Of a DNA stretch of 64,000 bases, positions 38,772 through 64,000 are shown in pieces. A model generated the notes under the pieces. The model saw only the letters and a list, made by a program, of their open reading frames with translations. It was not told the DNA's origin and ran no database searches. The position numbers and the translations under genes are program-made. Position 1 is the stretch's first letter. Each line of letters starts with the position of its first letter. Source of the DNA: Obrimoposthia wandeli (taxonomy: Eukaryota); NCBI GenBank assembly GCA_977020255.1, contig CDROCS010000370.1, positions 1,984,001-2,048,000 of the forward strand, read 5' to 3'.

Positions 38772-39233
38772 ATGTCGGAGAAAGAGCAACAGGATGCAGA
38801 ATATACCAAAGAAGAAGAACAGAGATATGATGTCTTGACATATGAAGAAAAGGCTGCATACTCGTCTGTTATTGCTAAGCCTATGGCTCCATGCAAATTG
38901 GGGAAAAAAATTTACAAGCTCGCATCTTCAGCTATTAAAGAAAAACAAGTTATTCTTGGTGTTAAAGCAGTTATGAAGGCGATTAAGAAAAATAAGCGTG
39001 GTTTTGTCTTGATTGCAGGAGATATATCCCCAATTGATCTGGTTATCCATGTGCCTAAAGTATGTGAAGATAAAAATATTCCTTATGTTTATCTGCCATC
39101 AAAACGCGACTTGGGACTATGCTGTGTTTCTCAAAGATCCGTAGCTATTGTCATGGTTTTAGAACATGAAAAATATGCCAAGAAATTTTCAAAGATTCAC
39201 AGCAAGTTAATGAAACTTCCTGTTCCCATTTGA
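38772..39233 (+). CDS. NHP2: H/ACA ribonucleoprotein subunit 2 (L7Ae family), intronless
   Basis: LGVKAVMKAI...VLIAGDISPID...HVPKVCEDKNIPYVYLPSKRDLG; 153 aa, intact. Confidence 0.9.
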   Translation: MSEKEQQDAEYTKEEEQRYDVLTYEEKAAYSSVIAKPMAPCKLGKKIYKLASSAIKEKQVILGVKAVMKAIKKNKRGFVLIAGDISPIDLVIHVPKVCEDKNIPYVYLPSKRDLGLCCVSQRSVAIVMVLEHEKYAKKFSKIHSKLMKLPVPI

Positions 39234-44629: not shown

Positions 44630-46430
44630 TGTTAGATTTAAGAATTGAAAAATTAAAAGAATTAGTTGAATTTATACTAAAATAAAAATCCTTGAAAGCA
44701 AGGTTAAAAATTAAATAAAATATTAAATTTAAAATCGAGTTAAAATATTAGGACTAAAATTAGGAATAAATATTGAGAGGACCACGAAGGTCGTGTGTAA
44801 TGTGTTGTATATATAAGTTAATTAGAAAATATTAAAGTGCAAAAAAATTAAGCAAGGCAAAATAGCATTTTCAGCAAAAACAAAAAATCTGAATTAATCG
44901 AAGAAAAAAGAAGATTGACAGGTTAAGAAAAGGGAAACTTAATCCAGAAAAAAGAAGATTGACAGGAAACCTACTTCAATCGATCCATTGCCAAGTGATC
45001 GACAGTAGAGGTAAGACTATATAAGTCTATTTTCAAATTGACTAATCGCACAGAAAACCTGTCGAAAAATCAGTAATTCCCGCACAGAAAAACCCGCAGA
45101 GAAAGCAGATCGGAAGTCTACTAAATCGTTCCCGGTTGGTAAATTTGCTTAGTGGAACTGAGCTAATATTGATTTCTATAGAATTCATACAGTGCGAGCC
45201 CAAATAAATCAACTGTGCTTCTGAAAAAGACAGACAAATCGATACTACTAGCCGTTTCCCAATTAGCTAGAGACCGCGACATTCACGACTCTCAGCGAGA
45301 CCACAAGTCAACTGCCGAGAGGACTTCTAATCAACCAAATCGGTTCAACTCATCACTCCTCGGACTTTCGGATTAAATAGGTGAGAATAGGTACGAAGTA
45401 AAAGTATTTGGAAAATATTGTGCAGTCTATTTTGTGTAATTGAAAGTTGACAATTCGGAACAACTTTTGTAAATCATATACATTGTCCAAAGTTGACAAT
45501 TCGGAACAACTTTTGTAAAATCATATACATTGTCCAAAGTTGACAATTCGGAACAACTTTTGTAAATCATATACATTGTCCAAAGTTGACAATTCGGAAC
45601 AACTTTTGTAAAATCATATACATTGTCCAAAGTTGACAATTCGGAACAACTTTTGTATATCATATACATTGTCCAAAGTTGACAATTCGGAACAACTTTT
45701 GTAAATCATATACATTGTCCAAAGTTGACAATTCGGAACAACTTTTGTAAATCATATACATTGTCCAAAGTTGACAATTCGGAACAACTTTTGTAAAATC
45801 ATATACATTGTCCAAAGTTGACAATTCGGAACAACTTTTGTAAAATCATATACATTGTCCAAAGTTGACAATTCGGAACAACTTTTGTAAAATCATATAC
45901 ATTGTCCAAAGTTGACAATTCGGAACAACTTTTGTAAAATCATATACATTGTCCAAAGTTGACAATTCGGAACAACTTTTGTAAATCATATACATTGTCC
46001 AAAGTTGACAATTCGGAACAACTTTTGTAAATCATATACATTGTCCAAAGTTGACAATTCGAAACAACTCTAAAATCTCGATCACCCCGAAAGTAAAATC
46101 GATACGTGGTTCATCCCCACTTGTTGTAGAGACTTACAGAAGTCCTAGGAATTTTTACTATACTTTTTAGAAAATACGTACGTAAACGTATTGTTGTGTG
46201 TTAGTTTAGTGTGTTACCAATAAACGATTTCCTACAATTAGAAAACGTTGTTTTAAAACCCTTCAGATTAAGAGACGTCAAACCAAACACCTTCAGATAA
46301 GCAATATAGATAGGCAACCATCACACTAAGTAGGCCACGACCAACTTTAAGACCTGCTTCTATTCGAACTCACGTTGGGGCCCTCCGCACACAAGAGGAT
46401 CTATACAAGTCTCGTATAGAAACCCCAACA
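44630..46430 (+). mobile_element. LTR, 1801 bp, flanked by AAAG on both sides (probable nested solo LTR)
   Basis: TGTTAG...CCAACA termini; AAAG at 44626-44629 and 46431-46434; both ends homologous to the ends of the 22070-23412 solo LTR. Confidence 0.8.
45444..46069. repeat. 46/47-bp tandem array, about 13.5 copies, inside the LTR
   Basis: Unit aagttgacaattcggaacaacttttgtaaa(a)tcatatacattgtcca. Confidence 0.95.
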
Positions 46431-46492
46431 AAAGCAATGCTTTAGCCTCTTGTACATATATGCCTTCTTATAGAAACCCCAACATATTAAAG

Positions 46493-46539: not shown

Positions 46540-46850
46540 GAATAAGTTTCAGATAATTGAGAATAAGTTTCAGGTAAATAGAATAAGTTTCAGATAATTG
46601 AGAATAAGTTTCAGGTAAATAGAATAAGTTCAGATAATTGAGAATAAGTTTCAGGTAAATAGAACAAGTTCAGATATTGAGAATAAGTTTCAGGTAAATA
46701 GAATAAGTTCAGATATTGAGAATAAGTTTCAGATAAATTGAGAATAAGTTTCAGCAGAAGAATATAGACAATTGAGAATAAGTTTCAGAAGAAGATATAA
46801 GCAAATTTAGAATAAGTTTCAGAAGAAGATATAAGTAAATTGAGATAAGT
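46540..46850. repeat. ~20-21-bp tandem array in the retroelement leader
   Basis: Alternating gaataagtttcagataattga / gaataagtttcaggtaaata units. Confidence 0.9.
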
Positions 46851-47290
46851 TTTTGAGAAATCGAGTAGATTTGTTCCTCGAAGTTAAGAATTTGATAAGT
46901 TTTGAGAAATCGAGTAGATTTGTTCCTCGAAGTTAAGAATTTGATAAGTTTTGAGAAATCGAGTAGATTTGTTCCTCGAAGTTAAGAATTTGATAAGTTT
47001 TTGAGAAATCGAGTAGATTTGTTCCTCGAAGTTAAGAATTTGATAAGTTTTGAGAAATCGAGTAGATTTGTTCCTCGAAGTTAAGAATTTGATAGGTTTT
47101 GAGAAATCGAGTAGATTTGTTCCTCGAAGTTAAGAATTTGATAAGTTTTGAGAAATCGGGTAGATTTGTTCCTCGAAGTTGAAAATTTGATAAGTTTTTG
47201 AGAAATCGGGTAGATTTGTTCCTCGAAGTTAAGAATTCGATAAGTTTTGAGAAGTCGAGTGGATTTGTTCCTCGAGTTCAGTAAATTTGA
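46845..47290. repeat. 49/50-bp tandem array, 9 copies, in the leader
   Basis: Unit gataagttttgagaaatcgagtagatttgttcctcgaagttaagaattt. Confidence 0.93.
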
Positions 47291-47503
47291 TAAAGTGAGA
47301 ATCGAGTGGATTGATACTCGAAGTAATTAATTGAATAGGTTAAGTCGGGAGACTGTGTCCTCGAACTAATTAAAGAGATAAAAAATCGTAAATAAATTTG
47401 ATAAAGTGAGAATCGAGTGGATTGATACTCGAAGTAATTAATTGAATAGGTTAAGTCGGGAGACGTGTCCTCGAACTAATTAAAGAGATAAAAAATCGTA
47501 AAA
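47284..47503. repeat. ~110-bp tandem duplication directly upstream of gag
   Basis: aaatttgataaagtgagaatcgagtgg...aaaatcgtaaataa occurs twice. Confidence 0.9.
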
Positions 47504-47537: not shown

Positions 47538-48485
47538 ATTGATATCGTAAACGAATACATAATTGATAAGACAACGGATAATAGAAAAGGACCCGCGTAT
47601 AATACTAGAAGACAAAGTCAGATTCCCAAGGAAGAGATAAATAATAATAAAGTTAACCGAATTGAACAGGTTCCCCAAACAGATAACAAAGTAACAGAAG
47701 AGACTAGAATCGAAGAAAACGTATCAGAAAGAGACGTTGATCAATCAGCGGTTTCAACCGACAGTTTTAATTTGACTGAATTATTTGGTGACATAAACCC
47801 AGAAGAAATTGAAATTACCAATCCAGTAGCGGTTGAGGAAGTTCAAGTGAATAATATTGAAGAAATAGTTGAAGATATAGCTGAAAATATGGCTCACCCA
47901 GGAGCTCAAGTAGATAATAATGCAGGAAATAATGTAGGTGACATGAATGCCGAGCAGTTGGCACAAGCCTTAAATGCGACGTTGAGACCCAACTTTTCAG
48001 GATCATTGCAGATTACAAAGTTTAAAGGAGATGAGGAAAGTATTTGTGACTTCCTCGCAGAATATTCGAGTTGTGCAGATGTTCAAGGATGGAACGATAA
48101 AGAAAAATGTGTCCGAGTACAGGCACACTTAACCGGATTAGCACTTGAAGTGTATAAACATTTGACAGAAGCAGAACGTTTAGACTGGCCAACGTTGGAA
48201 AATGCTTTTATTGGAAAATTGGTATTAGGAGACTTAGCCAAAGTAAATAAGCGACTCATGAGAGAACGGAAACAGAAACATGACGAAGGCGTGAATGAAT
48301 ACGCGTATGTTTTGAGAACCTTGGCCGCAAGAGCGTACCCAAGAAGAATAATGAGAACTCCAGAAGGTATTCCTGTAGCTCAAGAAGCACAAGTAGTGGA
48401 AAATGACCGGAACCAAAATGAAATGGCAGAGGTTTTGTTAGATATATTTAGAGGAGGATTGAAAAAAATATTAAAGTGTTATTAG
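47538..48485 (+). CDS. Gag N-terminal/capsid segment (open from 47538; no ATG before 47889, ACG at 47574)
   Basis: YNTRRQ, ITKFKGDEE, FLAEYSSCADVQGWND, LTGLALEVY, RKQKHDEGVNEYAYVLR; shifts -1 into the next ORF at an A7 run (48462-48468). Confidence 0.88.
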   Translation: MDIVNEYIIDKTTDNRKGPAYNTRRQSQIPKEEINNNKVNRIEQVPQTDNKVTEETRIEENVSERDVDQSAVSTDSFNLTELFGDINPEEIEITNPVAVEEVQVNNIEEIVEDIAENMAHPGAQVDNNAGNNVGDMNAEQLAQALNATLRPNFSGSLQITKFKGDEESICDFLAEYSSCADVQGWNDKEKCVRVQAHLTGLALEVYKHLTEAERLDWPTLENAFIGKLVLGDLAKVNKRLMRERKQKHDEGVNEYAYVLRTLAARAYPRRIMRTPEGIPVAQEAQVVENDRNQNEMAEVLLDIFRGGLKKILKCY

Positions 48486-51400
48486 CAGTATCGGATACAA
48501 ATGATTTTGATAACGCCGTGCGAAAGGCGAGAGAGATTGAGAAAAATATAAAAAATAACGCAGCATTGGCAATTTACGCAATGACTGCAGGTGACGACGA
48601 TAAGACAAAGGTCTTCGTGAATAAAACAGAACCGAGTAATTTTCAGAATCGAAATTATGGACAAAATAAGTTTGAAAAAGTAGATGAATCCAGTAACGGA
48701 AATAGAGATAATTTCCGAAGTAGGAATCGAGATGATTCCATAGGTAGAAATAATAGTGAGTCTTGGAACAGGAATCGAGATGATTCAAGAGGTAGAAATG
48801 GTAATGATTCGTGGAATAGAAATAGAGATGATTCCAGGAATAGATTTAATATAGATAATTCAGGAAATCGCCAACCTTGGAGAGGAGACGATAGGAATTA
48901 CAACGCAAATAGAGGAGAGCGAAGTGACTCTCGATTTGGAAATAATACAGGAAGTAGTGACGGAAGATTCAATAATCGAGGAAGCGGTTTTGAATCGAAT
49001 TTCCGAAGAAATGATTTTAGAGGACGATATGATAATAGACAGAATAGTCGTCGAGTACAGTTCGAAGATGAACAAAATAAGATAGATATTCGAGGGAGAA
49101 TAATGTGTTACACGTGTAAACAAATGGGTCACTATTCGAGAGATTGTACGAGAAGTAAAGAGTTCGGAACTAACAGATTTGGAAATAATAATTTCGGTAA
49201 TAATAATTTTGGAAACAATTATAGAGGATATAATTCACCTCCGCCATGGAATAGAGGTGGTGGATATACTCCACAGTCATGGAGACCGAATAATCAGTAT
49301 ACAGATAGACAACAGTCACCAGGTAGATACAATAATTATGCAGACAGACAGCAAGGAGCTGAGAGATACAATAATTACGTAGGACAGCAAGGAGCTGAGA
49401 GATATAATAATTATGGTAGATATAATAATAATAATGTTGACAAGACAAATAGTCGCGAGAGTTCGCCGAAACCGAAAGGAAATTTTAGTTATGTAAACGA
49501 TGACAGTGATAGGAATCGCGAAACCGAGCTTCGACGCGAAATAGATTTTGAGGATAGTGATAGTAAATTTGAACGAATGTTGGGAATAATTAAAGATTCA
49601 CCACATACAAAGATGGCGAATTCATCTACGTTGTCGAAACAAGAAAAAAGTCTACACTCGAGAGAAGAGATGAATGATTTAATGAATAAAATACTAGAAG
49701 CGTATGAGACACCAATAGAGAAAACGTGTAACGCACAACCTATGACTGAGCATGTAGAAGCAGCGAGAAATGCTACGAGTATGGAAAATGTAAAAAAGAT
49801 AATTAGTGAAGCTAAAGAAACGTTGAATCAACCGTTAGATGAAACGAGTGAAGCTCCAGAAGTTTTGGCCAAATTGCAAACAATTAAAGTACACCGATTG
49901 GAAGAAGTGCGTGCAGAATTGGTTAAACATAGTCATGATAACTTGGGTTACAAAGAAGTACCACGAGGATTATTGAAAGGTTATGGTCGTTACGTACAGA
50001 GATCAAACCAAAAAGGAACGATGAAAATTTCGCTTCGATTAATTTCCGGACAGATTATACATGAAAAACTTAACGTGTATCAGACAATGAAAACTATTCG
50101 GAAAAAGTTGGCCGAGAAACTTGAAATTGATGGAATGAATATGTTGTTCCATTATAAAGGGAGATCACTAGATGATGAGGACGTACCAGTCGAGTGTGGA
50201 TATCCGATAGGAAACGAATTAGAGGAAAAAATTGATGTCATCACTGTAGGACGTCAAGAGTTAGTAGATAATGAAGGATTAACGGAGATATTAAACTCTG
50301 CGTTAGAAATGATAAAAACGCCTATAGAAATTTTAGATAGTTCAAGCGAAAGCGGAGATAATGATGTAGCTGAAGCTTGGAACAAGACATCCACACCAGA
50401 ACCGTACGTAGCTGAATTACAAGAGATGAATTTAGAAAATGAGTTGACAACTCCAGTGGTCGAAGTACCACCAGAACCAGATATAATTCAAATCAGACAA
50501 GATGAAGTCACGGATACAGCTAATCAAGCGAGACAAAACGAAAACGTAACCCAACTAGTAGGAGAAGACGAAATCTCCGAAATTGTAGATTTAGATTCAC
50601 CAATTTGGCATGCTGCATACAAAGATAGACAAGCAGTGCAGATGATGCGACAAAATGAAGAGATTGGCCATGAAGAAGGACCAAGTCAAGAGATACAGTA
50701 TAATGGTGAACCATATGATCCAGGAGAAAATCAAACTGAGTATCAGTATTTTCGAAGAGGACCTGGAAGACCTAGAAAGGACGGAAGTATATTACGAAAT
50801 GTTCTAACTGCACCACAAACTGATGAAGAGAGACATCTAAGCATTGGACAGTTAGCAGCGTCATTAGAGCAGTATAGTACGGAGCGGAATGAAGATATCA
50901 GAGGTGATATGAATTCGGAAACTCCAAGTAGTAAAGATATACTTACGGGAATTCTCAGGCAAGTGAAGCCGAAGTTGTTCAAAATGTACAGAGATGAAAC
51001 AACCGATATAACAGACAATTTGACTAAAGCAGTTAGATCACAGATGTCTGCAGTAAAGAGAATGACTGCGAATCATGTATACCATGCATCGATAGATAGA
51101 TTTTACGACGGTGAAGTTTTAGCGAGATTATGTGGAAGCCAGACTACAAATAAAAAGTTAATTACAGCGATCACATATCTATGTTTCCAATTGACGGAAC
51201 GAACGAGCCAACCTCACGAAGTCAAACAAGGAATAAATGAAGCGATGTATTTGATCGAGAATGTATTGCAGAGACGAATCGACGAAAACGGAGGTTGGGC
51301 AAAATTAAGTGACTACGCTAAAACCATTGTGGAAATGAACGAAGACGACGACGAACAATGTCATGAGAATCGTCAAAGAGAAAATAAACAATACCGTCCG

Positions 51401-52612
51401 AAAGAGAGAAACAATCAACCAAATATGTCCACAACAATGATGATGATGATGTTAGTAATGTTCATGGGAATGCAACAGGCATCAGGATTGATAGCATACG
51501 ACTGTAGCATACCAAAGATGGGACAAAAGTATTCACTGCTTGACAGCGAAGACTGTCCAGAATCACAGCCGTCAAAATTAGAGGTTAAAGGTGTTGAAAA
51601 CTACTTTGTGTATCAGGATGTTGATAAAGTACAAGTAGAAGTGAAAGAATGTTCAGTCCATTCAAGTTATCACGAATTCTATTGTGGCCATATAAGTTTT
51701 ATGTCGGAAATCACACCTACTACACCGTACAAAGCACATAAGGTTTTTCCGAGAGATTGCGAAGACGCATTTCGTACAGGAACAATAGAAATAGACAAGA
51801 ATTACAAACCTAATGTAAAAATTGGAGTGAGACGATACGAAACAGTCACGAGAGTCGGACAACGATGGGCTGATGGATCTTGTGACGGAGGAACAAAACA
51901 CGTGCGTGGAACCAAAGTAACCGAGTTAGTAATGGACGTAACGTACAAAATTGAATTAAAATCATGGACCGCCAATTTTGATAAAAAGACACAACGAATG
52001 ATGAAGTATCCAGAATGTAAAATGACGGATGCATCTTGTTTTACAGGAGAATCCACAATTGTGTATCACGTGAATCCGAAACAATGCTCTTTAGTATTTT
52101 TGAAAGAGATTAGCTTTAACAAAATAAAAGGATTCCTGTATAATAAAGATGGAGAAGGGTTCCTGTATAATAAAGTTGGAAAAGGATTGCTCAATGAAAC
52201 AAGACCAATCCCAATGACAAAGACACCTACACTGTTAATGGCAACATCAATAGAAGAAGGATTGATATTTATTAAAAAGAGAAACAAAGCGCGATGCGGA
52301 ATGACTGTTAGTACTACAAACTATCCTGGAATAGTTTTGTCCAAAGAAGCAATAGCATTGGCAGAAACCGAGCTAAAACCTAGAGATATGCAGCTACACA
52401 CGTATTTTAATAATAAAATTGATTTCTATTATCATAAAGGATTGATGCAAATGGAACAGTTATATCGGATGATGATCGAAAGAGATTGCCAGCTAAACAA
52501 AGAGATCGTAAGAACAAAGCTAGCATTAGCTATTACGAATCCAGACATGGTAGCACCATTATTACCCTTGGACGAAGGAGTGTTTGCTAAAACCATGGGA
52601 GAAGTATTGTAA
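48476..52612 (+). CDS. Gag C-terminus with CCHC knuckle, ubiquitin-like domain, AT-hook, Bcl-2-like domain and N-terminal part of the envelope glycoprotein
   Basis: CYTCKQMGHYSRDC (49106-49147); MKISLRLISG...YKGRSLDD (50021-50257); RRGPGRPRK (50753-50779); RIDENGGW (51287-51298); signal peptide plus LIAYDC (51425-51505). Confidence 0.88.
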   Translation: MLLAVSDTNDFDNAVRKAREIEKNIKNNAALAIYAMTAGDDDKTKVFVNKTEPSNFQNRNYGQNKFEKVDESSNGNRDNFRSRNRDDSIGRNNSESWNRNRDDSRGRNGNDSWNRNRDDSRNRFNIDNSGNRQPWRGDDRNYNANRGERSDSRFGNNTGSSDGRFNNRGSGFESNFRRNDFRGRYDNRQNSRRVQFEDEQNKIDIRGRIMCYTCKQMGHYSRDCTRSKEFGTNRFGNNNFGNNNFGNNYRGYNSPPPWNRGGGYTPQSWRPNNQYTDRQQSPGRYNNYADRQQGAERYNNYVGQQGAERYNNYGRYNNNNVDKTNSRESSPKPKGNFSYVNDDSDRNRETELRREIDFEDSDSKFERMLGIIKDSPHTKMANSSTLSKQEKSLHSREEMNDLMNKILEAYETPIEKTCNAQPMTEHVEAARNATSMENVKKIISEAKETLNQPLDETSEAPEVLAKLQTIKVHRLEEVRAELVKHSHDNLGYKEVPRGLLKGYGRYVQRSNQKGTMKISLRLISGQIIHEKLNVYQTMKTIRKKLAEKLEIDGMNMLFHYKGRSLDDEDVPVECGYPIGNELEEKIDVITVGRQELVDNEGLTEILNSALEMIKTPIEILDSSSESGDNDVAEAWNKTSTPEPYVAELQEMNLENELTTPVVEVPPEPDIIQIRQDEVTDTANQARQNENVTQLVGEDEISEIVDLDSPIWHAAYKDRQAVQMMRQNEEIGHEEGPSQEIQYNGEPYDPGENQTEYQYFRRGPGRPRKDGSILRNVLTAPQTDEERHLSIGQLAASLEQYSTERNEDIRGDMNSETPSSKDILTGILRQVKPKLFKMYRDETTDITDNLTKAVRSQMSAVKRMTANHVYHASIDRFYDGEVLARLCGSQTTNKKLITAITYLCFQLTERTSQPHEVKQGINEAMYLIENVLQRRIDENGGWAKLSDYAKTIVEMNEDDDEQCHENRQRENKQYRPKERNNQPNMSTTMMMMMLVMFMGMQQASGLIAYDCSIPKMGQKYSLLDSEDCPESQPSKLEVKGVENYFVYQDVDKVQVEVKECSVHSSYHEFYCGHISFMSEITPTTPYKAHKVFPRDCEDAFRTGTIEIDKNYKPNVKIGVRRYETVTRVGQRWADGSCDGGTKHVRGTKVTELVMDVTYKIELKSWTANFDKKTQRMMKYPECKMTDASCFTGESTIVYHVNPKQCSLVFLKEISFNKIKGFLYNKDGEGFLYNKVGKGLLNETRPIPMTKTPTLLMATSIEEGLIFIKKRNKARCGMTVSTTNYPGIVLSKEAIALAETELKPRDMQLHTYFNNKIDFYYHKGLMQMEQLYRMMIERDCQLNKEIVRTKLALAITNPDMVAPLLPLDEGVFAKTMGEVL

Positions 52613-52642
52613 ACTTACAAGTGTAATAAAGTAGAAGTACAG

Positions 52643-55600
52643 TTGAGAACAACAAACCGATGTACGAGTGAATTGGCAGTAACGCATAATTTAAAAGAAC
52701 TTTTTGTTGAACCAATCACGAGAATGATACTTCCAAAAGACACTCCAACTAAAGAAATCAGCTGCTCTAATATAATGGCACCTGAATATCAGATGACGAA
52801 TGATCTATGTATAACGTTACCTGATCGAAAGCCAACGAAAACCCCAGCAATGATAAAAATGACGAATCTTAAAGGTAAAATGAAATTCGAAGCGGTAGAA
52901 AATATGGAGAACGCAGGATTGTACAATGAAAAAGACTTAAAAGCGGCATGGAACGAAATAATGTTTCCAGTAAAAAGAGCCAGAGTACTTACGGAGATGG
53001 TACATCGAGCATTACCGCCAGGAGCTAGATATGCGAATTTCGATATGTTGTTATCGCCAAGTCATTTCAAGGAAGCAGCACATCAGACGCTTAGAAAGAT
53101 GTGGGGGAAATTCCTTGTTTTAGGACAATTATTTTCGGGTATCATAGGTATTTATGTTATAATTAAATTTGTGCAGGTAATTATAGCCCAGGTGTTGTCT
53201 ACGTATAGTTTATACAGGATAACCGGAATCACCTGGCAACTTATAATTGGATGTTTTCCATTTTTAGCAAAATATCTAATGCACCATCATCACGAGAACG
53301 AGTTGCGAGCCCTCAAGAAGGAGCAACATCAAACGAGAACCATGATGCGAGAACCAAGAAACTATCAAGACGACAACGACGACGATAATGATAGCCCAGG
53401 AGTATATGCAAAGATACCAGGAAAACCAAAGATTCCGTTACCAGACAAGGAAGAAGTGGCGTTAAACCTATATCCAATGAAGGAACTAAAGGAAGAGAAG
53501 GAAAAGTTCAAGAGAGGCATCTTAATGATAAGATGGCCTAAAATGAGCTACAGTGAGATTCCACAAGCAGAGGAAAAAGACAAAAAAGATAATTCCAGAA
53601 TAATTCTGAAGTCTAGGATATCAAATGAGAATCCAAATGCTCCACCACAAGTAGCAGTAACATTGAACGGAAGAGAATATCTTGCCGAAGTTGATACCGG
53701 ATCTGCAGTATCAGTACTGAGTAAAGAAATTTTGTCATCAAAAGAATTAAGAGAAGTATGTCCTAGAAAACAGACATTTGTTAACGTAAATGGTACAGAT
53801 GTAGTGTCGGAAGGAACACTGAAATGTTCATTGAATATCGATGGAAGAGCATTACAGTTAAATGCTAGAATATTCACAGATTGCGGTAGTCCAGTCATGA
53901 TTGGGATGGACGTAATAAGAATGTTTGAAGGAATAATCATATTACCAAACAACAAGAGTTATAAGAATGACAGTTCAGTGAGAGAGATAAAAATGTTGAG
54001 AAGACCTATAGTCGAAAAGGAAAAATACACTACGTTCCGTATGGGAAATTCGTACCAAGACAAAAAACAGGAAGCGCTAGTAAAGTCGATACTTCACTAC
54101 AAAAACGTAAACCTCGGACCACAAGAGATGACGAGGAGGAAAATAACATATGTGAATCTGTCAGAAAAGGATCCCATGAGATTCGAGAAAAAGAGACGAA
54201 ATATATTAGAACAGTACTATTCAAAAGAAATGGCACGTAAAATGGCAAGATCAGGTTTAGAAATGTTAAACGCGACAAGTAGTTATGGTCATGAGGAAGT
54301 CGTACGATGCGTATGGTGTAGAGTAAAGTTTAGAGAGTGGGAAAAGAATGAAAACCCAATGAGACGCCATAAAAAAGACGCACCAAATTGTCCATTTCTT
54401 TTGAAACTGAAAACGTCAAACGTACCAGAAATCCAAAAGGGAAAAGCACCCGATTTCGATTACAGTGACGAGATTCCAAAAGGAAAATCAGCTCTAATAA
54501 CAGGTAGAGTAATAACAAATAGCCGAATTGAAGACATATTCGAAGTTATGCGAGAAGTGAACGAATGTGACGAACAGTATCGAGAAGTAACTTTCGAAGA
54601 TCCAAGACTTAAAAAATTGGCAAAAAAGGGACTTTTTGCTATAAAAAAGGATGGTAAAGACGTAATTAAATGCCACAAGTGTAAAAAAGAACGAATTATC
54701 GACAGATATACTCTTGAGCTACCTAAGAAAATTTTACATCATGAATTTTGCGAGTTTTGTATGTTAAAAAACAAAATAAAGCAAAAAGAACAGAAAACCG
54801 AATGTATAATCGAATACCAAATCACACGGAAAGAGATTTTGGCTCAACAAGACACACCGGTAGTGTCATTCGTGAGAAGGTTATATCCAAAAGAAGCAGA
54901 AAGAATCAGAGATTTGGTAGAATTAAAAATAAAAACTACGCGAAATGGATACGGATCAATTTTTGAATTACTGAAAGATAAAGATGACAGTACAATTGAA
55001 ACAAAAGAGAAAGAGTACATAAATGAACTAGAATACGTACTAGAAGATCCGGAATGCGCAGTTTGCATGGTCAACAAAATAGAAGTTGCCTTTCTACCAT
55101 GCGGACATGTAAGAACATGTCGGAGATGTGCGAATGAAATGGTATCATGTCCGATTTGTCGAAGAATAATAGATCGACAAGAGAGAAACATTAGATTTCA
55201 CTATCCAAACCTAGGAAGTGGACCGACAGAGTGTAATAATTCGATAAATACAATATACCATATGGAAAATATAAATGGAGCACAGCGACCAGCAGCTATC
55301 ATTAGAGTAAATAATTTAAGAGTAAAAGCCTTAATTGATACAGGTGCTGTAGCTTCGATAGTAAGTGAAGACTGTTTTACAGAGGAACAGAAACGAACAA
55401 TGGCAGAACCAGATGAATTCTTGGTATCGGTCAATGGAGACCCTGTTAAAGTGACGGGAATATTACCATGTACATTTATAATTGGACGTAATACGATCAC
55501 TATACCAGTTAGAATCATGAAAGAATGTCCTGAACCTACAATTTTAGGAATGGATGTACTATCACAACTTAAAGGGATAAGTATTGATTTACAAGATCCA

Positions 55601-58600
55601 AGATTGAAGGATAGCACATCAAACAGACAAATAAACCAAATTGATGTAATTATAGAGAATCCTATAAAAATCGGTAAAAGATCACAATTTCTCATTCAAG
55701 GTCACACATTATCAGAAGATAAAGGACCAGTTGTGTTCGAACCATCACGAGATTTCATAGAGAAATACGAATTGCCAGTTGTGAGTACAGTATGTCTGAT
55801 CGAAAACCACAAAATACCAGTTAGACTGATGAATACAACCAACAATGACATTCTATTATACAGAGGAATGAGGTTGGGAAAGATAGCACAGATGGAGAAT
55901 CCCACCGTGTGTGCTATGAAACTCGATAAAGATACGAATGATTACGAAGAAATAGTAATCCAATCAGAAAGACTGACAACTAGAGAAAAGAAACAATTAC
56001 TTGATCTAATACATAAATTTCCGAAAGTAATTGCAAAAAATCCATATGACATAGGAGAAACACCTGTCATAAAACATACAATACCACTGACAGAAGATAA
56101 AGTAGTCAGAAGAAGACCATATCGAGTACCATTACAGTTACAAGATGAAGTAAAAAGTCAGATCGAAGATATGTCTAAAACAGGAGTAATTAGACCGAGT
56201 TTTTCGCCATTCTCAGCACCTGTGGTGTTGGTAAAAAAGAAGGATGGGAAAATGAGATTCTGTATAGATTTCAGAGAACTGAACAAGATCACAAGAAAAG
56301 ATGTGTATCCATTACCTAGAATCGAAGAAATGCTCGATAAATTGGGTAATTCAGATTATTTTACAACATTAGATTTGCAGAGTGGATACTGGCAAATCGA
56401 GATAGAGGAAGAGGATAAACACAAAACAGCCTTTTCCTGCGGAGATGGATTATACGAATGCGAAAAGATGCCATTCGGACTGACAGGAGCTCCAGCAACA
56501 TTTCAGCGTTGCATGAATTTTGTACTCGCATCGTGTGCAAACACGATGGTTTATATCGATGACATAATAATATTTTCGAAAACGTTCGAAGAACATTTAA
56601 AAAATCTTGAAGTTGTATTTAAAAGACTGGAAAACGCTAAATTAAAAGTTAAACCTACAAAATGCGAATGGGCTAAAGAGCGAGTAACATTTTTAGGACA
56701 TATAGTATCGAAAGAAGGCATTCGACCTGATCCGGCAAAGATCGAGAAAGTAAAAGCGCATTTAGCGCCAAAGACTGTTAAGGAGATACAGAGTTTTTTA
56801 GGTCTTGCGAATTATTATAGACGATTTGTTGAACATTTTTCAGATATAGCAACACCATTGAGAAAGTTGACGAGGAAAGATGAGAAGTTCATATGGGGAG
56901 AAGAAGCACAACAAGCGTTCGAGCATTTAAAAGAAAGACTAATCAAAGCACCAATATTAGCGTTTCCAGATATAAACCGACAATTCATACTCATGACAGA
57001 TGCAAGTAACTATGCTGTAGGAGCAGTATTGGGACAAGAGGATGACGAAGGAAGAGAACACGTCATCGCGTATGCGAGTAGAGGATTAAACAGAGCCGAA
57101 AGAGGATACTCTGTTATCGAAAAGGAATGTCTAGCCATAGTGTATTCCTGTAGACAATACAGACACTACTTGCTAGGACAAAAAGTATTCCTGTATACAG
57201 ATCACAAACCACTACAGTTCTTATATAAACATAGAGATGAGATGAGTAGATTAAACAGATGGTTTCTAAAATTGGCCGAATTCGATCTAGAAATCCGTTA
57301 TAGAACCGGAAAGTCGAATGGCAACGCAGATTGTTTGTCGAGATTGACAAATGTAGACGAGAAAGGAAACATAATTCCAGAAGAAGATGAAACCAATGAC
57401 CAAAAAGGAGAAGCAAATCTACTGACGATTTTGCTGAAGACGGGTAAAATAGACAAAGAGATCATCAAGGAACAGAAAGAAGATGAAGAATTGAGTCTAA
57501 TCAAAGAATTGTTGGTGAAAGGAGATCTAAACGATGAAATGACGAAAAAATACTCGATAAAAGAAGGAATCTTGTATATTGTCAATAATGTCGGAAAGAT
57601 AATAGTAGTAATTCCGAAGTCATTGAAAACAGCAGTAATGATCCAGTACCACGATGGAACCTTAGGAGGACATCTGTCAGGGCGAAAGACAATAGCCAGA
57701 ATCAAAGAGAAATACCATTGGGATGGTATGGAAGACGACATAAAACAATGGTGTAAACAATGTAAAGTATGTTTAACCAGAAAAGACACTGGAACTCGTA
57801 CTAAAGTTCCACTGAAACCAATGCCAGTCCCCTTGGCACCAATGGAATTCACAGCGATGGATATATTGGGACCATTGAGAGAATCAAGTAAAGGAAACAA
57901 GTACGTCATAGTATTTACAGACTATATGACGAGATGGGTAGAAGCATATCCCATGCAGAACCAGAAAGCTGAAACAATAGCGCAAATCTTAGTGGAAGAG
58001 ATAATATTTCGATACGGAGTGCCTAGAAAGTTGTTAACGGATCAAGGTAAGAACTTCACTGGAGAAGTAATAAAAGCAGTATCGAAGATATTCGGAATTA
58101 TGAAGTTACAAACTTCACCATATCACCCACAAACATATGGTCTAGTAGAAAGGTTTAATAAAACTTTATGTATGATGGTACAATCCTATTGCTCAGACAA
58201 GCAAGAGGATTGGGATAAATATTTACCTTCATGTTTATATGCTTACAGGAATTCAGTTCGAGAGGCGACGGGTCACACACCATTCTATCTGATGTATCTC
58301 AGACAGAACAATATGCCAATGGATCTGGAGTGGACCGAGCCAACATCTCAGTATCTAGAAACTGAACAATACATTGTCGTCATGAAGGAAAGATTGCAAG
58401 ATGCTTGGACCAAAGCCGGAGTGAAGTTGAAATTCAATCAAGAAGGTTACAAGAAACAATACGACAAAAAAGCAAAACCACATGAATTTAGAGTCGGAGA
58501 TCAAGTGATGATATTTTATCCAGTCATCGAACCAGGTCTATCGTTTAAACTCCATAGACCATACAAAGGACCGTACAAGGTGATCCAGACAACCTCAACA

Positions 58601-61168
58601 AATTTGAAAGTAATCAACGAGGAGAATCGGAACAAGGAACCGATGATTGTACATGCAAATCGATGTAAATTGGTACCAAATAAAGATAACGCGTCACGAT
58701 ATGAGTTAAGATCACAGAAATTGAAGCCGAATACCAATACCATTAAACTTACACGAATGGTAAGTGATCGGAACTACATAAAAATGATGACGAATGGTAG
58801 CGAGAAAAAACCAGCGAGAATTGGTATGCTCAGAATGAAGCACCAAGAGGAAAAGGAAGTAATCCGACACATCGCACCACAAGAGATATTAGAAGAAGAT
58901 GAAGAGATAATAGTTGTTTTCGAAAAAACACAATCAACAGATGTGGCTAAAGAAGTCATTGTGAAAGATGCACTGACAAACGAATTTCTGTGCGAACTTA
59001 GAGTGTCATACTATGACGGAAATACACTAGTCGCAGCACTTTATCAAAACTCCAATGTGTTTACGACTGAGAAAGTGATAATCGAAATCACATTGACACC
59101 AAACATAGTTGCATGGCAGAACTATGACAGTACTGAAGCAGGACTAGCCAGTCAGGAAGAAAAGGAACCGGCCGGTGGTCACATACTGTATGGTACACCA
59201 AAAAGACTCAAACAAGAATACCACGATGTAATAATGGTATTACGTAATTCACATGGGAAAAGAGATATTATGAGAGTTCATTTAATCGACGCAGACACCG
59301 AAAAGATAATTTGTCAGATGGACGCCAAATACTTTGATGGAAAGACAATTGTATGTTGTATACCAGAATCTCACCGGTTAGACACAGATCAAACGGAAGT
59401 ATCTGTAAGGTTGAGCGTAATAGAAGGATTTCATTCGCCAAACCAACCGGAAGTGACCAACAATAAAATCATCAAAGCAACGGCAGAGTTACGCATTGAC
59501 AGCGGATACCGGAAGTGGGAAGCTAAAAATAAAAAACCACAAAGAATCAATATGATCCGAGAACAAGTAACCAACTCAATCCAGCCAAAATATCATGCTG
59601 AAATAGTATCATCCGCGCCAAGTGTGATTACATCGATAAACGACGAAATTTTAATTTTACTAAAAAGTCGATGGCCGTCATCAACCGAGATACGAGTCAA
59701 TTTAATTAATTATGCGAAAACACCGATATCTAAGCTGAATGTTACCTATTTCGATGGATTATCCATCATGGGTAAATTAGAAACAATTGTCATGTACTAT
59801 GGAGCGCAGTTCCAAGTTGAGATACTTAAAGATAGCGTAATACCGTATCCGATTCACAAATACGAAGGGGAAATCAATCCAATTATTCTAACCCCTTCAT
59901 TAATTTCAGTTCAGACAGACATACCAGAATACCCTTCGAGCGAGTCTAGTCAAGACAGCGAACCGGAAAGTAACGATACAGAATCAACAGAATCCGAAGA
60001 TAACATGATAGAGCGATTCGGAAAAACCATGGAGGTTGAATTCGCTAAAGAGAGCAGAAAAAGACAAAACATAGAATTCGTGAAACAGAATATACAAGAA
60101 AGACGAATTAAATCTGCAGAAGAGACCGAGTCGGAAGAAGACTCAACAAAGGAACAGACATCAGAGACAAAGATGAATATCTCTCCAGCAATACGAATGC
60201 TGAGAGGAAAGAAACTGGCGAAACTATCCAACATCGACGAACAGATAGAGAAGAGATTAGAAAGACTAAAACTCGAAGAGTCAGAATTATTGCCACCAAT
60301 GAGTGAGATCATTCCAGATAAGTTATACCTCGGAAATGTGGAAGATGCAACAGATGAAAAGAAACTGTTGGAACAAGGGATAACATACGTGATCAACGTT
60401 ACAATGAATCACAAATCACAATATCAGACAATCAGAGCTATGACATTACGAGTAAAAGACTCAATGGACGCTAATCTTCTCGAATGGTTCGTAGAAACAA
60501 ACGAAATACTTCACAGAGAACTCCGAAACCAAGGAAAAGTGTTGGTACATTGTCAAAAAGGAATCTCTCGATCAGCAACCCTAGTATTAGCATATCTAAT
60601 AAAGACTAGACGAATGCAGGTACTAGAAGCACTGAAATACCTACAGGAGAGAAGAAGTATTGCAAACCCAAATCTTAATTTTTTGGGACAGTTGTCAAAT
60701 TACCAACTTCTGTTGCAAGAACAAAGACGGATGGATGACATCCCTGAGGATCCAAAGGAAAAGAATTTCCTCCAAGCATTATCATTGACCGGGTTATTCT
60801 TAGCCGGAGTCGACAAAATTACACAAATAATGCCAAAAGTATTTTTATGTTATCCAGGATATATAGATACTGCTGGATTAAAGTTCCACAGTATCAACCG
60901 AGTAATCAACATTGTTGAAGTCGGAAACGAGATAATTAGTCTGTGTCAAAATACTGAAGACGACACCACTCGATACATACATGCTTCCAATCGAGAGATA
61001 AACGATGCACAACAACATCTGACGAAATTGACTCAAACCATCCAAGCCGAAGTCACAGAAGGAAACGGCGTGCTGATATATCAGAAAAAAGGTACGATGT
61101 TAGCGCCTACCATAGGTGTATCCTTGTCACACACCAGAAGAAGCGATGGTCTACATCAAACAGAATAG
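52643..61168 (+). CDS. Envelope C-terminus/TM, protease, BIR, BIR-like, RING, protease, RT, RNase H, integrase, three TIG-like repeats, DUSP and pseudo-DUSP
   Basis: DTG at 53693 and 55337; CVWC...H...CPF; CAVC...CGH...CPIC; YIDD 56552; TDAS 56996; HHCC and D-D-E; HCQKGISRS 60548; in frame with the previous ORF across a single TAA (52610-52612). Confidence 0.93.
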   Translation: MRTTNRCTSELAVTHNLKELFVEPITRMILPKDTPTKEISCSNIMAPEYQMTNDLCITLPDRKPTKTPAMIKMTNLKGKMKFEAVENMENAGLYNEKDLKAAWNEIMFPVKRARVLTEMVHRALPPGARYANFDMLLSPSHFKEAAHQTLRKMWGKFLVLGQLFSGIIGIYVIIKFVQVIIAQVLSTYSLYRITGITWQLIIGCFPFLAKYLMHHHHENELRALKKEQHQTRTMMREPRNYQDDNDDDNDSPGVYAKIPGKPKIPLPDKEEVALNLYPMKELKEEKEKFKRGILMIRWPKMSYSEIPQAEEKDKKDNSRIILKSRISNENPNAPPQVAVTLNGREYLAEVDTGSAVSVLSKEILSSKELREVCPRKQTFVNVNGTDVVSEGTLKCSLNIDGRALQLNARIFTDCGSPVMIGMDVIRMFEGIIILPNNKSYKNDSSVREIKMLRRPIVEKEKYTTFRMGNSYQDKKQEALVKSILHYKNVNLGPQEMTRRKITYVNLSEKDPMRFEKKRRNILEQYYSKEMARKMARSGLEMLNATSSYGHEEVVRCVWCRVKFREWEKNENPMRRHKKDAPNCPFLLKLKTSNVPEIQKGKAPDFDYSDEIPKGKSALITGRVITNSRIEDIFEVMREVNECDEQYREVTFEDPRLKKLAKKGLFAIKKDGKDVIKCHKCKKERIIDRYTLELPKKILHHEFCEFCMLKNKIKQKEQKTECIIEYQITRKEILAQQDTPVVSFVRRLYPKEAERIRDLVELKIKTTRNGYGSIFELLKDKDDSTIETKEKEYINELEYVLEDPECAVCMVNKIEVAFLPCGHVRTCRRCANEMVSCPICRRIIDRQERNIRFHYPNLGSGPTECNNSINTIYHMENINGAQRPAAIIRVNNLRVKALIDTGAVASIVSEDCFTEEQKRTMAEPDEFLVSVNGDPVKVTGILPCTFIIGRNTITIPVRIMKECPEPTILGMDVLSQLKGISIDLQDPRLKDSTSNRQINQIDVIIENPIKIGKRSQFLIQGHTLSEDKGPVVFEPSRDFIEKYELPVVSTVCLIENHKIPVRLMNTTNNDILLYRGMRLGKIAQMENPTVCAMKLDKDTNDYEEIVIQSERLTTREKKQLLDLIHKFPKVIAKNPYDIGETPVIKHTIPLTEDKVVRRRPYRVPLQLQDEVKSQIEDMSKTGVIRPSFSPFSAPVVLVKKKDGKMRFCIDFRELNKITRKDVYPLPRIEEMLDKLGNSDYFTTLDLQSGYWQIEIEEEDKHKTAFSCGDGLYECEKMPFGLTGAPATFQRCMNFVLASCANTMVYIDDIIIFSKTFEEHLKNLEVVFKRLENAKLKVKPTKCEWAKERVTFLGHIVSKEGIRPDPAKIEKVKAHLAPKTVKEIQSFLGLANYYRRFVEHFSDIATPLRKLTRKDEKFIWGEEAQQAFEHLKERLIKAPILAFPDINRQFILMTDASNYAVGAVLGQEDDEGREHVIAYASRGLNRAERGYSVIEKECLAIVYSCRQYRHYLLGQKVFLYTDHKPLQFLYKHRDEMSRLNRWFLKLAEFDLEIRYRTGKSNGNADCLSRLTNVDEKGNIIPEEDETNDQKGEANLLTILLKTGKIDKEIIKEQKEDEELSLIKELLVKGDLNDEMTKKYSIKEGILYIVNNVGKIIVVIPKSLKTAVMIQYHDGTLGGHLSGRKTIARIKEKYHWDGMEDDIKQWCKQCKVCLTRKDTGTRTKVPLKPMPVPLAPMEFTAMDILGPLRESSKGNKYVIVFTDYMTRWVEAYPMQNQKAETIAQILVEEIIFRYGVPRKLLTDQGKNFTGEVIKAVSKIFGIMKLQTSPYHPQTYGLVERFNKTLCMMVQSYCSDKQEDWDKYLPSCLYAYRNSVREATGHTPFYLMYLRQNNMPMDLEWTEPTSQYLETEQYIVVMKERLQDAWTKAGVKLKFNQEGYKKQYDKKAKPHEFRVGDQVMIFYPVIEPGLSFKLHRPYKGPYKVIQTTSTNLKVINEENRNKEPMIVHANRCKLVPNKDNASRYELRSQKLKPNTNTIKLTRMVSDRNYIKMMTNGSEKKPARIGMLRMKHQEEKEVIRHIAPQEILEEDEEIIVVFEKTQSTDVAKEVIVKDALTNEFLCELRVSYYDGNTLVAALYQNSNVFTTEKVIIEITLTPNIVAWQNYDSTEAGLASQEEKEPAGGHILYGTPKRLKQEYHDVIMVLRNSHGKRDIMRVHLIDADTEKIICQMDAKYFDGKTIVCCIPESHRLDTDQTEVSVRLSVIEGFHSPNQPEVTNNKIIKATAELRIDSGYRKWEAKNKKPQRINMIREQVTNSIQPKYHAEIVSSAPSVITSINDEILILLKSRWPSSTEIRVNLINYAKTPISKLNVTYFDGLSIMGKLETIVMYYGAQFQVEILKDSVIPYPIHKYEGEINPIILTPSLISVQTDIPEYPSSESSQDSEPESNDTESTESEDNMIERFGKTMEVEFAKESRKRQNIEFVKQNIQERRIKSAEETESEEDSTKEQTSETKMNISPAIRMLRGKKLAKLSNIDEQIEKRLERLKLEESELLPPMSEIIPDKLYLGNVEDATDEKKLLEQGITYVINVTMNHKSQYQTIRAMTLRVKDSMDANLLEWFVETNEILHRELRNQGKVLVHCQKGISRSATLVLAYLIKTRRMQVLEALKYLQERRSIANPNLNFLGQLSNYQLLLQEQRRMDDIPEDPKEKNFLQALSLTGLFLAGVDKITQIMPKVFLCYPGYIDTAGLKFHSINRVINIVEVGNEIISLCQNTEDDTTRYIHASNREINDAQQHLTKLTQTIQAEVTEGNGVLIYQKKGTMLAPTIGVSLSHTRRSDGLHQTE

Positions 61169-62627
61169 ACCAGATACGGAATTCAAACCGTTACTCGTTC
61201 GAGAAATAGAGAAGTACGCCGAAAAGAGGAAGCAACAACGAGAAACAAATGAAGCTACAACAACAGTGCCCAGCTTTCAATACCAAAGATTGCTAGCGAT
61301 AGGCTTGTTAAGTTGTCTAATGCCGATAACGGGAGCACAAGAGATAGACTCCAACCACGGAAATAGTTCCTGGTTCAAAGAAATCCACAACTACATCATA
61401 CAGTACCATACACCGGCACTGATGATGCTATTAGTGTTGTTAGGATTAATTGATGTGTGGATCATCCGAAAATGTCTCCGATCTATGAGAACCGACAGTA
61501 AACGATTTCAGTTTGTAAAGATGAAAAGACCAAATGGACCGACGAACAAAGTACTTGTGTATCTAGACGAAAGGATCGAGAACAACATAGTAAATGAAGC
61601 GATATTTTACCCACAAAACAGAATACTGAATCAATTCCGAATGGATTACGAAGCTGACCGACAGCGCACACTTGACCGAATATCAACAACATTCGCCGGA
61701 TGCAAGCGGAGAAAACGAATTGTAAAGGAAATACAAAAAGATGCTGATACAAAAGGACCGACGTATATATTCGACGGCGATGTCATCAAAACACGTGAGT
61801 ATGGAAGTAAGAGAGTGATAATTGAAACGATGGAAGGACATAAAACATGCTTGTCCGCCAAAAATGGATTCGGAAAGTTGATGATACAAGGTAAACAGGT
61901 ACAGTTGATTATCGGAAAAACTGGAATCGAAGAAATGTCAAAACAACGACAGACAACAAAACGATCCAACCAGAAACAGATATCACTCAAACGAATGATA
62001 ATTAAAACCCTTTGCAAAAGGTCAGTCAAGGCCCTGTGCACCGTTGCACAAGGATTGATCTACGGAGTAGTAATTGGATTGGTACTACAAGCCATGCCGA
62101 CCAGTAAAGCTGAACTGATGACATTATCTGAATATAATCTACATTTGAGAAATCTGGACAACACCCTAGAAATAATCAAGACGTCCCACAGTAAAGCCGT
62201 GATGATCATGTGTGTAAAAGGATGTCCAGGACGAATGTGTATAGTTCCAGCGACCGAAATGAAAACACTTAATGGACATTATGGAATTAGTGTTGTCACA
62301 TGTGAAGACTACACATTTGGACAAACTAAAATAGTACTTCTCAGTGACATGTCCAACCAAAGTGCACATAAATTTAAAATATTAACCATCAAGAGTAAAG
62401 GGATACCAGCAATACGTTATGGTATTCTAGAATTGGTTAATCCAATACTGGCACTGATCATTGGATTTATAATATTAATATTACTCATCTTGTTTTGTTG
62501 TACAAAGATAGAGTTGAGATCAAAAAAGAAACGTCATGATCTCGCAAGACGAACAGGTCAAATGAATTTACAAAAATTCAACACAAGTATACCAAGACCA
62601 CCCTTCCTAGATGAACCAGCACCATAG
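61116..62627 (+). CDS. Pseudo-DUSP C-terminus followed by two signal-peptide/TM cassettes
   Basis: EEAMVYIKQNRP completes the second DUSP fold across a +1 shift; hydrophobic segments at ~61287, 61416, 62052 and 62445. Confidence 0.75.
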   Translation: MYPCHTPEEAMVYIKQNRPDTEFKPLLVREIEKYAEKRKQQRETNEATTTVPSFQYQRLLAIGLLSCLMPITGAQEIDSNHGNSSWFKEIHNYIIQYHTPALMMLLVLLGLIDVWIIRKCLRSMRTDSKRFQFVKMKRPNGPTNKVLVYLDERIENNIVNEAIFYPQNRILNQFRMDYEADRQRTLDRISTTFAGCKRRKRIVKEIQKDADTKGPTYIFDGDVIKTREYGSKRVIIETMEGHKTCLSAKNGFGKLMIQGKQVQLIIGKTGIEEMSKQRQTTKRSNQKQISLKRMIIKTLCKRSVKALCTVAQGLIYGVVIGLVLQAMPTSKAELMTLSEYNLHLRNLDNTLEIIKTSHSKAVMIMCVKGCPGRMCIVPATEMKTLNGHYGISVVTCEDYTFGQTKIVLLSDMSNQSAHKFKILTIKSKGIPAIRYGILELVNPILALIIGFIILILLILFCCTKIELRSKKKRHDLARRTGQMNLQKFNTSIPRPPFLDEPAP

Positions 62628-63953
62628 TACCAGCCAACGATATATGAACATATCGAGGAAAGACCGTACTATATGAGTAATTTGAGCTGTTTCATTGAAA
62701 TTCCTGAGTTTAGGAATCGAACGATCATAGGAATCATGCTGATCATACAAATTACCACTACCAAGGCTAGTTATGAGATCATGATCAGTAAATGGAGACA
62801 AGACGTAATACGGGCGTTATACATAGAAATCCCTCTATTAAAAACAAATCACGTAGTAGACATTCATCTACAGACGTCAGCAACCGACAATATCGATCAG
62901 AAATTGTATGTCATCCGACAGGTCAGAATCAAGATCGACCAAAGTACACCCGACTACAAACTAATATTATTCCATCATGAAAGAGTGTTATACCTACGGA
63001 TAACGATATCAAAGAGGAAGCGGATTATCCAAAGTATCCGAACAAAGTCATTAATATTGCCTAGAGATGAGCGCATCTGGAAAATTGTCGACAGGATTAT
63101 GATCACAGGTAGACGACGTAAAGCCGTATGGAATTCCGTTAGAATATTTTTCAGATTGCTAGAAACTGACAAAGTAACAGTATCGTGTCCCAATCCAGAT
63201 GGCGGAATCAGATTCGAAATCCAAAACCAAATGTTAGTACCACATTTTGATACAGAATGTCTATGTAACCGAATTCCCAGCAATGCTACAGAGACCTCGA
63301 CCATAATCATGGTAATAACAGGTGAAATATTCTACATAACTCTAAGATACCAGAACCGTCGATTTCGTAGATCCGGTATAAGTATCAAACCCAGGAAAAT
63401 CATTCCCAAAAAACCAATCCTAGTCAAAAAGAAGGCAAAGGTAAACGAAAGTAAACACCATTCCAAAAAGCCGAAAGTGATCAGAACAAAGACAGAAGCG
63501 AAAGAAAAAGAGCTCAATTCCAGAAACCAAAGTACAGTGATTAAGAGGACAAGAGTGAGGGGAACGATCCCACTAGATCCCAAACATAATTTCCAATCCA
63601 AAATAATAATACCTGTTCCATCAGAAACAAAACACCCAAATCCACGAATTTTTAGAAAATCGGACATAATACATGGAAACCGATCAAAACCCATGGAAAT
63701 GTCATTCGAACCGACAAACAACAAAATGAAGTATGATTATCAATCATCAGATAGCAGAGTAACAGCGGTCAATGCTCTAATTGGAATGGCCGTAGTGTCA
63801 ACAGCAGTGGTTCTATTGACAGTTGTGTGCGTAAAAGGCAGTCAAGTATGCCCAAGAATACGACGAAAATGCGAAGGACTGCGATGCTGTGACACACCCA
63901 CCATGGAGGAAGTGGAACTGCGACCCTTACCTCCGCCTCCCATCAAGATATGA
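62628..63953 (+). CDS. Terminal polyprotein segment: signal-peptide/ectodomain/TM cassette with Pro-rich tail (first ATG 62673)
   Basis: In frame with the previous ORF across a single TAG (62625-62627); hydrophobic segments at ~62718 and 63776; ends PLPPPPIKI*. Confidence 0.7.
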   Translation, partial: YQPTIYEHIEERPYYMSNLSCFIEIPEFRNRTIIGIMLIIQITTTKASYEIMISKWRQDVIRALYIEIPLLKTNHVVDIHLQTSATDNIDQKLYVIRQVRIKIDQSTPDYKLILFHHERVLYLRITISKRKRIIQSIRTKSLILPRDERIWKIVDRIMITGRRRKAVWNSVRIFFRLLETDKVTVSCPNPDGGIRFEIQNQMLVPHFDTECLCNRIPSNATETSTIIMVITGEIFYITLRYQNRRFRRSGISIKPRKIIPKKPILVKKKAKVNESKHHSKKPKVIRTKTEAKEKELNSRNQSTVIKRTRVRGTIPLDPKHNFQSKIIIPVPSETKHPNPRIFRKSDIIHGNRSKPMEMSFEPTNNKMKYDYQSSDSRVTAVNALIGMAVVSTAVVLLTVVCVKGSQVCPRIRRKCEGLRCCDTPTMEEVELRPLPPPPIKI

Positions 63954-64000
63954 TAAGTCAGAGGAGGTTGTAGATAAATTAGTGTGTGAAATATGTAGAA

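Follow-up and report, generated by a model that had tools for sequence, protein, structure and literature searches.

The stretch of DNA analysed here (the window; 64,000 nucleotides) contains on its forward (+) strand an element of ~23 kb, the 3' LTR of which begins ~1.8 kb beyond the window end. The 5' LTR (TG...CA; 44630..46484) has internal tandem repeats and is followed at 46493 by a PBS-like motif; the 5' and 3' LTR segments are 99.1-99.3% identical. Tandem arrays are located at 45440-46070, within the LTR, and at 46540-47500, in the leader before gag. Downstream lie Gag with one CCHC knuckle (47538..49150), a ubiquitin-like (Ubl) domain (50033..50200), a weak Bcl-2-like stretch in which just the last motif is recognisable (51110..51298), and an in-frame fusion glycoprotein (Env) of the Monjiviricetes type (51434..53380). 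These features, up to and including the start of the fusion protein, are upstream of a 2851-codon frame (52613-61168) that encodes the end of Env, aspartic protease 1 (53651..53914; catalytic Asp codon 53693), an IAP module, aspartic protease 2 (55301..55567; catalytic Asp codon 55337), RT, RNase H and integrase in the Ty3/gypsy order (56231..58129; Pfam), and an MKP-like dual-specificity phosphatase (DSP) with an intact catalytic motif (60323..60706; Pfam E 8e-35). The two proteases, both upstream of RT, are mutually 29% identical. The window copy is broken: the gag frame is interrupted near 48452-48485, env has a stop at 52610-52612, and more breaks follow after 61168. Because of the upstream breaks, this copy cannot make the module within a full polyprotein; frames of 4000-5300 codons remain open in other copies.

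Downstream of the intact DSP, another phosphatase-like stretch, degenerate and spanning a frame break (60740-61300), was recognised by eye, without Pfam support. The tail frames at 61116-63953 are long, contain several membrane-like hydrophobic segments and gave no convincing match to a Pfam family. Just past the window end and before the 3' LTR, two tandem RING-H2 frames (L013:2-373 and L013:377-739, beginning at window position 63999; Pfam zf-RING_2 E 1.8e-6 and 1.6e-8) represent more ubiquitin-ligase cargo. Elsewhere in the window, two protein-kinase-like frames with similar Pfam profiles lie in opposite orientations (20894-21715, minus strand; 25623-26078, plus strand) and are possibly an inverted duplicate, and a frame of the Ribosomal L7Ae/L30e/S12e/Gadd45 family is located at 38757-39230.

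According to the available part of PMC6431247, Burro1/GYPSM1 and Burro2-4 of Schmidtea mediterranea carry BIR, BCL2-like and ubiquitin-like domains and an in-frame env. As far as these elements are described there, our element resembles Burro1-4 in being a giant Ty3/gypsy element with a single polyprotein that holds Gag-CCHC, Ubl, BCL2-like, BIR, protease, RT, RNase H and integrase, and in having an in-frame env between gag and pol that is related to mononegavirus fusion proteins. The characteristic Burro cargo is present in the published order, with a strong BIR, a Ubl match (Pfam E 0.0012) and a weak Bcl-2 match (Pfam E 0.081). Unlike Burro1-4 as described in that part of the source, the element is ~23 kb rather than >30 kb, has one CCHC knuckle, lacks a Pfam match to MATH or ankyrin, and has two proteases around the IAP module and an MKP-like phosphatase after integrase (PMC6431247). 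Because of its length, it was filed as Burro-like and not as Burro1. We class it as a Burro-like giant Ty3/gypsy LTR retrotransposon of high copy number; a DNA search of the assembly identified 2704 candidate copies, and all 40 for which a score was obtained had full length at 98-100%. No supported splice-like joint was present in the read contigs listed for the element.

Like the hosts of the Burro elements, this host is a flatworm: at conserved sites of the COX1 copies, AAA stands for Asn and ATA for Ile (table 9), and the COX1 and 18S motifs presumably point to a flatworm and not to an echinoderm. Bacterial COX1 genes are also numerous in the assembly, which in addition holds another animal COX1 that is not flatworm-like; single-copy matches, some of the Bcl-2 or BIR loci among them, may belong to organisms other than the host. 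In one marine-metagenome-labelled run, element contigs covered 28 of 30 bins of window positions 52600-56800 and were mostly at least 95% alike; this run, from one study, hints at a marine host outside the families named for Burro1.

Based on end-to-end alignment with the IAPs of Maverick elements and with three proteins, P0003, P0062 and P0069, the IAP module extends from ~54075 to ~55207 (+), in frame in the polyprotein. An earlier note on this DNA had placed a BIR, a degenerate BIR and a RING at 54170..55162, "inside pol". All of the BIR, second-repeat and RING motifs that it quoted are present at these positions, which form a single open frame with no stop on translation. This core was right, but the homologues place both ends further out; similarly, the module is within the gag-env-pol frame, but between the two proteases and upstream of RT. 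The module begins with a clade-specific N-terminal extension (54077..54157), which is predicted with low confidence (pLDDT 52-66) to form a beta-hairpin. It is followed by BIR1 (54164..54418), with the zinc-ligand pattern C-x2-C-x16-H-x6-C (ligand codons 54308, 54317, 54368, and 54389), a variant BIR2 (54548..54775), with the pattern C-x2-C-x18-H-x3-C (ligand codons 54671, 54680, 54737, and 54749), a UBA-like helical domain (54827..55003), and an IAP-type RING with its tail (55046..55207), which stops at a Tyr-Pro pair that marks the end point of the free-standing homologues.

Assignment to the IAP family is based on at least one BIR with the spacing C-x2-C-x16-H-x6-C, which BIR1 has, and on a C3HC4 IAP-type RING, which is present; the Pfam matches to BIR (E 2.6e-12) and zf-C3HC4_3 (E 9.7e-11) are both above the curated cut-off. 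The second repeat, with its H-x3-C spacing and a Pfam BIR match under the cut-off (E 0.0088), is not a canonical second BIR. The fold of BIR2 is confident in the predicted model (residues 161-210, block pLDDT 85-94), and the spacing C-x2-C-x18/19-H-x3-C is found in five of the six members of the clade to which the module belongs, the sixth having lost it. We therefore regard BIR2 as a conserved variant zinc site and not as a degenerate repeat.

The structure model, made from 69 aligned rows that include generic IAPs (mean pLDDT 78), has BIR1, then another BIR-like domain, a helical domain and the RING. The modelled BIR1 matches BIRC6 (Z 12.8) and DIAP1 BIR1 (Z 11.5). Residues 258-312 of this model, which is informed by generic IAPs, match the XIAP UBA (2kna) with a middling score (Z 6.3, rmsd 1.9 over 54 residues); at the sequence level, this region weakly resembles the UBA region of cIAP1 and has no Pfam match. 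The best Foldseek match of the whole model was cIAP1 (3t6p), and the best relatives of the module among solved structures were cIAP1, NAIP and the cIAP/XIAP RINGs, with DIAP1 also matched. We conclude that the layout is BIR-BIR-UBA-like-RING and is nearer to the C-terminal part of cIAP/XIAP than to the baculovirus type. Thus, the earlier note correctly recognised an IAP and three of its domains, but it missed the UBA-like domain and assigned the layout of baculovirus and insect IAPs. The order BIR-BIR-UBA-like-RING of the module corresponds to that of cIAP1/XIAP (BIRC2/BIRC4), BIR-BIR-UBA-RING; unlike these, it has no CARD and has a variant BIR2 zinc site, an altered groove, an N-terminal hairpin, and a RING inside a polyprotein. 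It shares with the IAPs of baculoviruses, nudiviruses and entomopoxviruses, which were found as fold matches, the virus-borne, intronless BIR-BIR-RING form, whereas identity to these proteins is 13-24% and the viral ones are free-standing genes.

For the analysis of conservation, we used 41 copies, i.e., the window copy and the 40 best env matches, so that copies were not picked by IAP. The module was covered fully in 36 of the 41 copies and partly in 4; in the remaining one, it was missing due to a deletion that also removed protease 2. There was no stop or frameshift in the module in 17 of the 36 fully covered copies. The zinc ligands were kept in 38-39 of 39 copies for BIR1, 38-40 of 40 for BIR2 and 35-38 of 36-38 for the RING, and all 16 ligands were kept among copies and homologues at 27-38% identity, with the BIR2 site lost in one clade member. 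The Tyr and the Pro at the point where the free-standing homologues end were kept in 38/38 and 37/38 copies, respectively, and the catalytic Asp residues in 41/41 copies for protease 1 and in all 37 copies covering protease 2. The earlier note had held that a module restricted to this copy, or zinc ligands not conserved in the family, would speak against its reading; neither was found. The module is a fixed part of the element family.

Among module variants common to at least three copies, 55 were nonsynonymous (N) and 66 synonymous (S) (omega 0.27), compared to 168 and 80 among singletons (omega 0.69; p 6.5e-5). In BIR2, UBA and RING, omega was 0.05-0.11 (small counts). There is purifying selection on BIR2-UBA-RING. 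The first 110 codons (N-terminus and BIR1), with 37 N and 20 S, differed from the rest of the module, with 18 N and 46 S (p 5.8e-5), and are the least constrained part of the frame. Three residues, each in at least three copies, were found at 8 of these 110 codons versus 4 of the 2575 codons of env, core and tail, N/S and multi-allelic counts not being independent on a tree. The N/S of BIR1 is under the neutral expectation of ~3. The N-terminus and BIR1 thus appear to be changing fast, which could reflect decay of function or relaxed constraint. The rest of the module is in turn looser than the protease-to-integrase core (5 N and 156 S; p 2e-7); env and the tail are under constraint similar to that of the module.

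To place the module among its relatives, we searched the assembly with a BIR profile and obtained 12110 first-look candidates. Thirty BIR loci were inspected, of which 10 belong to family A and 18 to a family-B group; the remaining two we take to be survivin-like and BIRC6-like, respectively. All four BIR loci examined in full are in Maverick-type elements (family A: C609 and C777; family B: C3067 and C3621). The family B elements are ~15 kb and have terminal inverted repeats, the IAP, an A32-type ATPase, a chromodomain integrase, a capsid-like frame and a protein-primed polymerase; the polymerase has a Pfam match in one copy and none in a 94% identical piece of another. Both family-B stretches adjoin pieces of LTR element and are therefore in host contigs. 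In the family A elements (~14 kb), inverted repeats of 4 kb each carry the IAP together with a phosphatase devoid of the catalytic motif, with ATPase, integrase and capsid-like frames and no polymerase between them. Family A is a high-copy, non-autonomous Maverick derivative, and many inverted IAP pairs lie ~10.5 kb apart in the assembly. An ATPase or family-A phosphatase was located at most 1.5 kb from 16 of 50 BIR loci, 13 of these 16 being in the B group; no Maverick frames were found at two further BIR loci viewed more widely (C3084 and C1409). The C3084 locus contains a 7.15 kb tandem repeat, of which three units were seen, each with a partial family-B-like IAP.

The Maverick IAPs are 32-38% identical to the module, from just past their start codon to their last residues. 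P0003, P0062 and P0069, which are free-standing as called, were the only end-to-end single-stretch profile matches in the best 150 from 1.84 billion representatives, and the top BLAST match for the module was P0003. A single-sequence search gave one generic IAP, and scans of metagenome (80 of 116 loci kept) and viral (3 loci) data gave generic IAP/RING loci only, with the clade-specific middle unmatched. When polyprotein relatives were sought among longer proteins, a weak test, 0 of 1026 candidates passed, and the fetched relative proteins had no match to protease, RT, env or DSP. The module, the two Maverick families, P0003, P0062 and P0069 split off together at 100/99 in a 30-row LG tree and at 100/100 in a 16-row mixture-model tree, which took in 30 and 16 rows from 85, gave long-branch and composition warnings, and did not include named viral IAPs. 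All six members share the N-terminal extension and the middle region, and generic IAPs have neither. The IAPs from viral contigs, one in the 16-row tree and two in the 30-row tree, fell outside this clade. A nesting of the module among free-standing IAPs, present in the 30-row LG tree, was lost with the mixture model. In topology tests, a Burro+Maverick group, absent from the best tree, was not rejected (p-AU 0.43), and a module outside the other five members had a p-AU of 0.083.

IAP RINGs are normally C-terminal, and because five of the six clade members are free-standing, the form embedded in the polyprotein is likely derived. The closest relatives of the module in the assembly are free-standing Maverick IAPs, and the gene was therefore possibly passed between a Maverick and the retrovirus-like element. 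In third-position base use, the module is like the element (T3 0.22) and unlike the Mavericks (0.39-0.41), which indicates that the capture is old. With regard to origin only, we give a little less than an even chance to the alternative of independent captures by Burro and by the Mavericks from a host IAP belonging to this clade, without exchange between elements. That P0003, P0062 and P0069 are free-standing, that P0003 is the best BLAST match, and that a Burro+Maverick group is absent from the best tree and only not rejected agree with such independent capture; on the other hand, no host gene of the clade was seen, and among the loci inspected, 28 of 30 from the BIR search and all 20 examined in addition are repeat-borne. 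The searches of the assembly for a host IAP, in which repeats crowded out other matches and genes divided among exons would have escaped, gave 0 matches with Pfam UBA_BIRC2-3, no match with the P0003 N-terminus, and 150 matches with a canonical BIR3 query, of which the 20 inspected were all Maverick-A-like. A more far-reaching scenario, which we offer tentatively and hold to be rather unlikely, is that a Maverick gave the whole anti-death gene to the retro-element, in which it is now a cleavage-activated ligase between duplicated proteases with BIR1 in an arms race against a host target; two unrelated selfish lineages would then carry, within one flatworm genome, thousands of IAP copies of one clade and a common type of phosphatase cargo. 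The DSP of the element and the Maverick A phosphatase are 32% identical, and in a search for a host DSP, 30 of 30 loci were element copies.

In our preferred reading, which we consider probable, the module is an IAP gene that likely came from a free-standing gene, was fixed between the proteases, is predicted to be cut out, and likely functions as a survival-promoting ubiquitin ligase. IAP RINGs need a free C-terminal tail to dimerise, and Tyr-Pro is a known type of retroviral protease site. The RING is internal in the polyprotein, and the conserved Tyr-Pro pair could free it. An element protease is predicted to cut the polyprotein and release the IAP (~43 kDa); a cut at the Tyr-Pro pair, a candidate site proposed from its motif, would free the C-terminal tail of the RING, and ligase activity may be switched on only after processing. 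No N-terminal cleavage site of the module was found. BIR1 would pick a caspase or an IAP antagonist as the target for ubiquitination by the RING, with the outcome that element-expressing host cells would be kept from dying. Where BIR3 of cIAP1 has Trp and Glu, BIR1 has Asp and Arg, respectively, at positions that presumably form the peptide-binding groove; BIR1 therefore does not have the intact groove of a caspase-binding (type II) BIR. This alteration makes XIAP-style direct blocking of caspases doubtful and ubiquitination the likelier route; direct binding of caspases has no support from the sequence.

The survival benefit is suggested by analogy with Burro1. Within B-IAP of Burro1 (Lee et al., Dev Cell 2026, as cited in the available part of PMC13465017), a BIR+RING region shields stem cells from caspase-driven death, and our module is likened to it, by description only, as a BIR plus RING within a Burro element. 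An anti-apoptotic role, as proposed earlier, is thus reported for the matching Burro1 region (PMC13465017, in part), but the proposed action at two levels, together with a Bcl-2-like domain, is not borne out: the Bcl-2-like stretch, in addition to its Pfam E of 0.081, had a probability of 6% against host Bcl-2 segments (hhalign) and no match in PDB and Atlas searches. A Bcl-2 profile gave 51 first-look candidates in the whole assembly and so did not pick up the element copies. By contrast, the DSP, for which the best solved match is DUSP10 (E 5e-25), is constrained among copies and may be a better second anti-death arm than the Bcl-2-like stretch, via JNK/p38.

We weighed two other readings of the function. 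The module might be a ubiquitin ligase directed not at caspases but at antiviral or silencing factors, such as innate signalling, piRNA or chromatin proteins, with the fast-changing BIR1 tracking a host restriction target. The altered groove of BIR1, the concentration of multi-allelic codons in the N-terminus and BIR1 (8/110 versus 4/2575), and the presence of the Ubl domain, the MKP-like phosphatase and the two RING-H2 frames in the same element would all fit a target of this kind; yet the N/S of BIR1 falls short of positive selection, and the Burro1 region acts on caspase-mediated death (PMC13465017, in part), and we consider this reading improbable. That the module is a passenger, retained only since the frame between env and RT must stay open, would agree with its being looser than the protease-to-integrase core. 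The 16 zinc ligands kept in copies and in homologues at 27-38% identity, the synonymous excess in BIR2, UBA and RING, and the similar constraint on env and the tail are difficult to reconcile with mere passage, which we regard as very unlikely.

IAP and BCL2 cargo in Burro elements and an anti-death role for Burro1 are already largely published, as the accessible portions of these sources make clear; the Maverick kinship, the flanking by proteases, the UBA-like domain and the fast BIR1 are additions that those portions do not contain. In the accessible portions of the respective papers, adintoviruses carry IAP and Bcl2 homologues (PMC8502044), Mavericks are vehicles for cargo (PMC10680173), and planarian piRNAs target BURRO1 and polintons (PMC8532177). 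Polinton-type elements of the adintovirus/Maverick kind thus likewise bear IAP cargo, without a link to LTR elements in those portions of PMC8502044 and PMC10680173. In the literature searched, we found no published tie between the Burro IAP and Maverick IAPs; Lee et al. could hold one.

As far as the accessible sources go, the Burro1 IAP is a published case of a transposon aiding the survival of host stem cells. Finding an IAP under selection in another element of different construction would mark a lasting strategy of the lineage. If the donor was a DNA-virus-like element and not the host, the view of such genes as host-derived cargo would change, and cargo would move between retro-elements and DNA elements. 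The internal RING would also provide a simple test system for protease-gated activation of a ligase.
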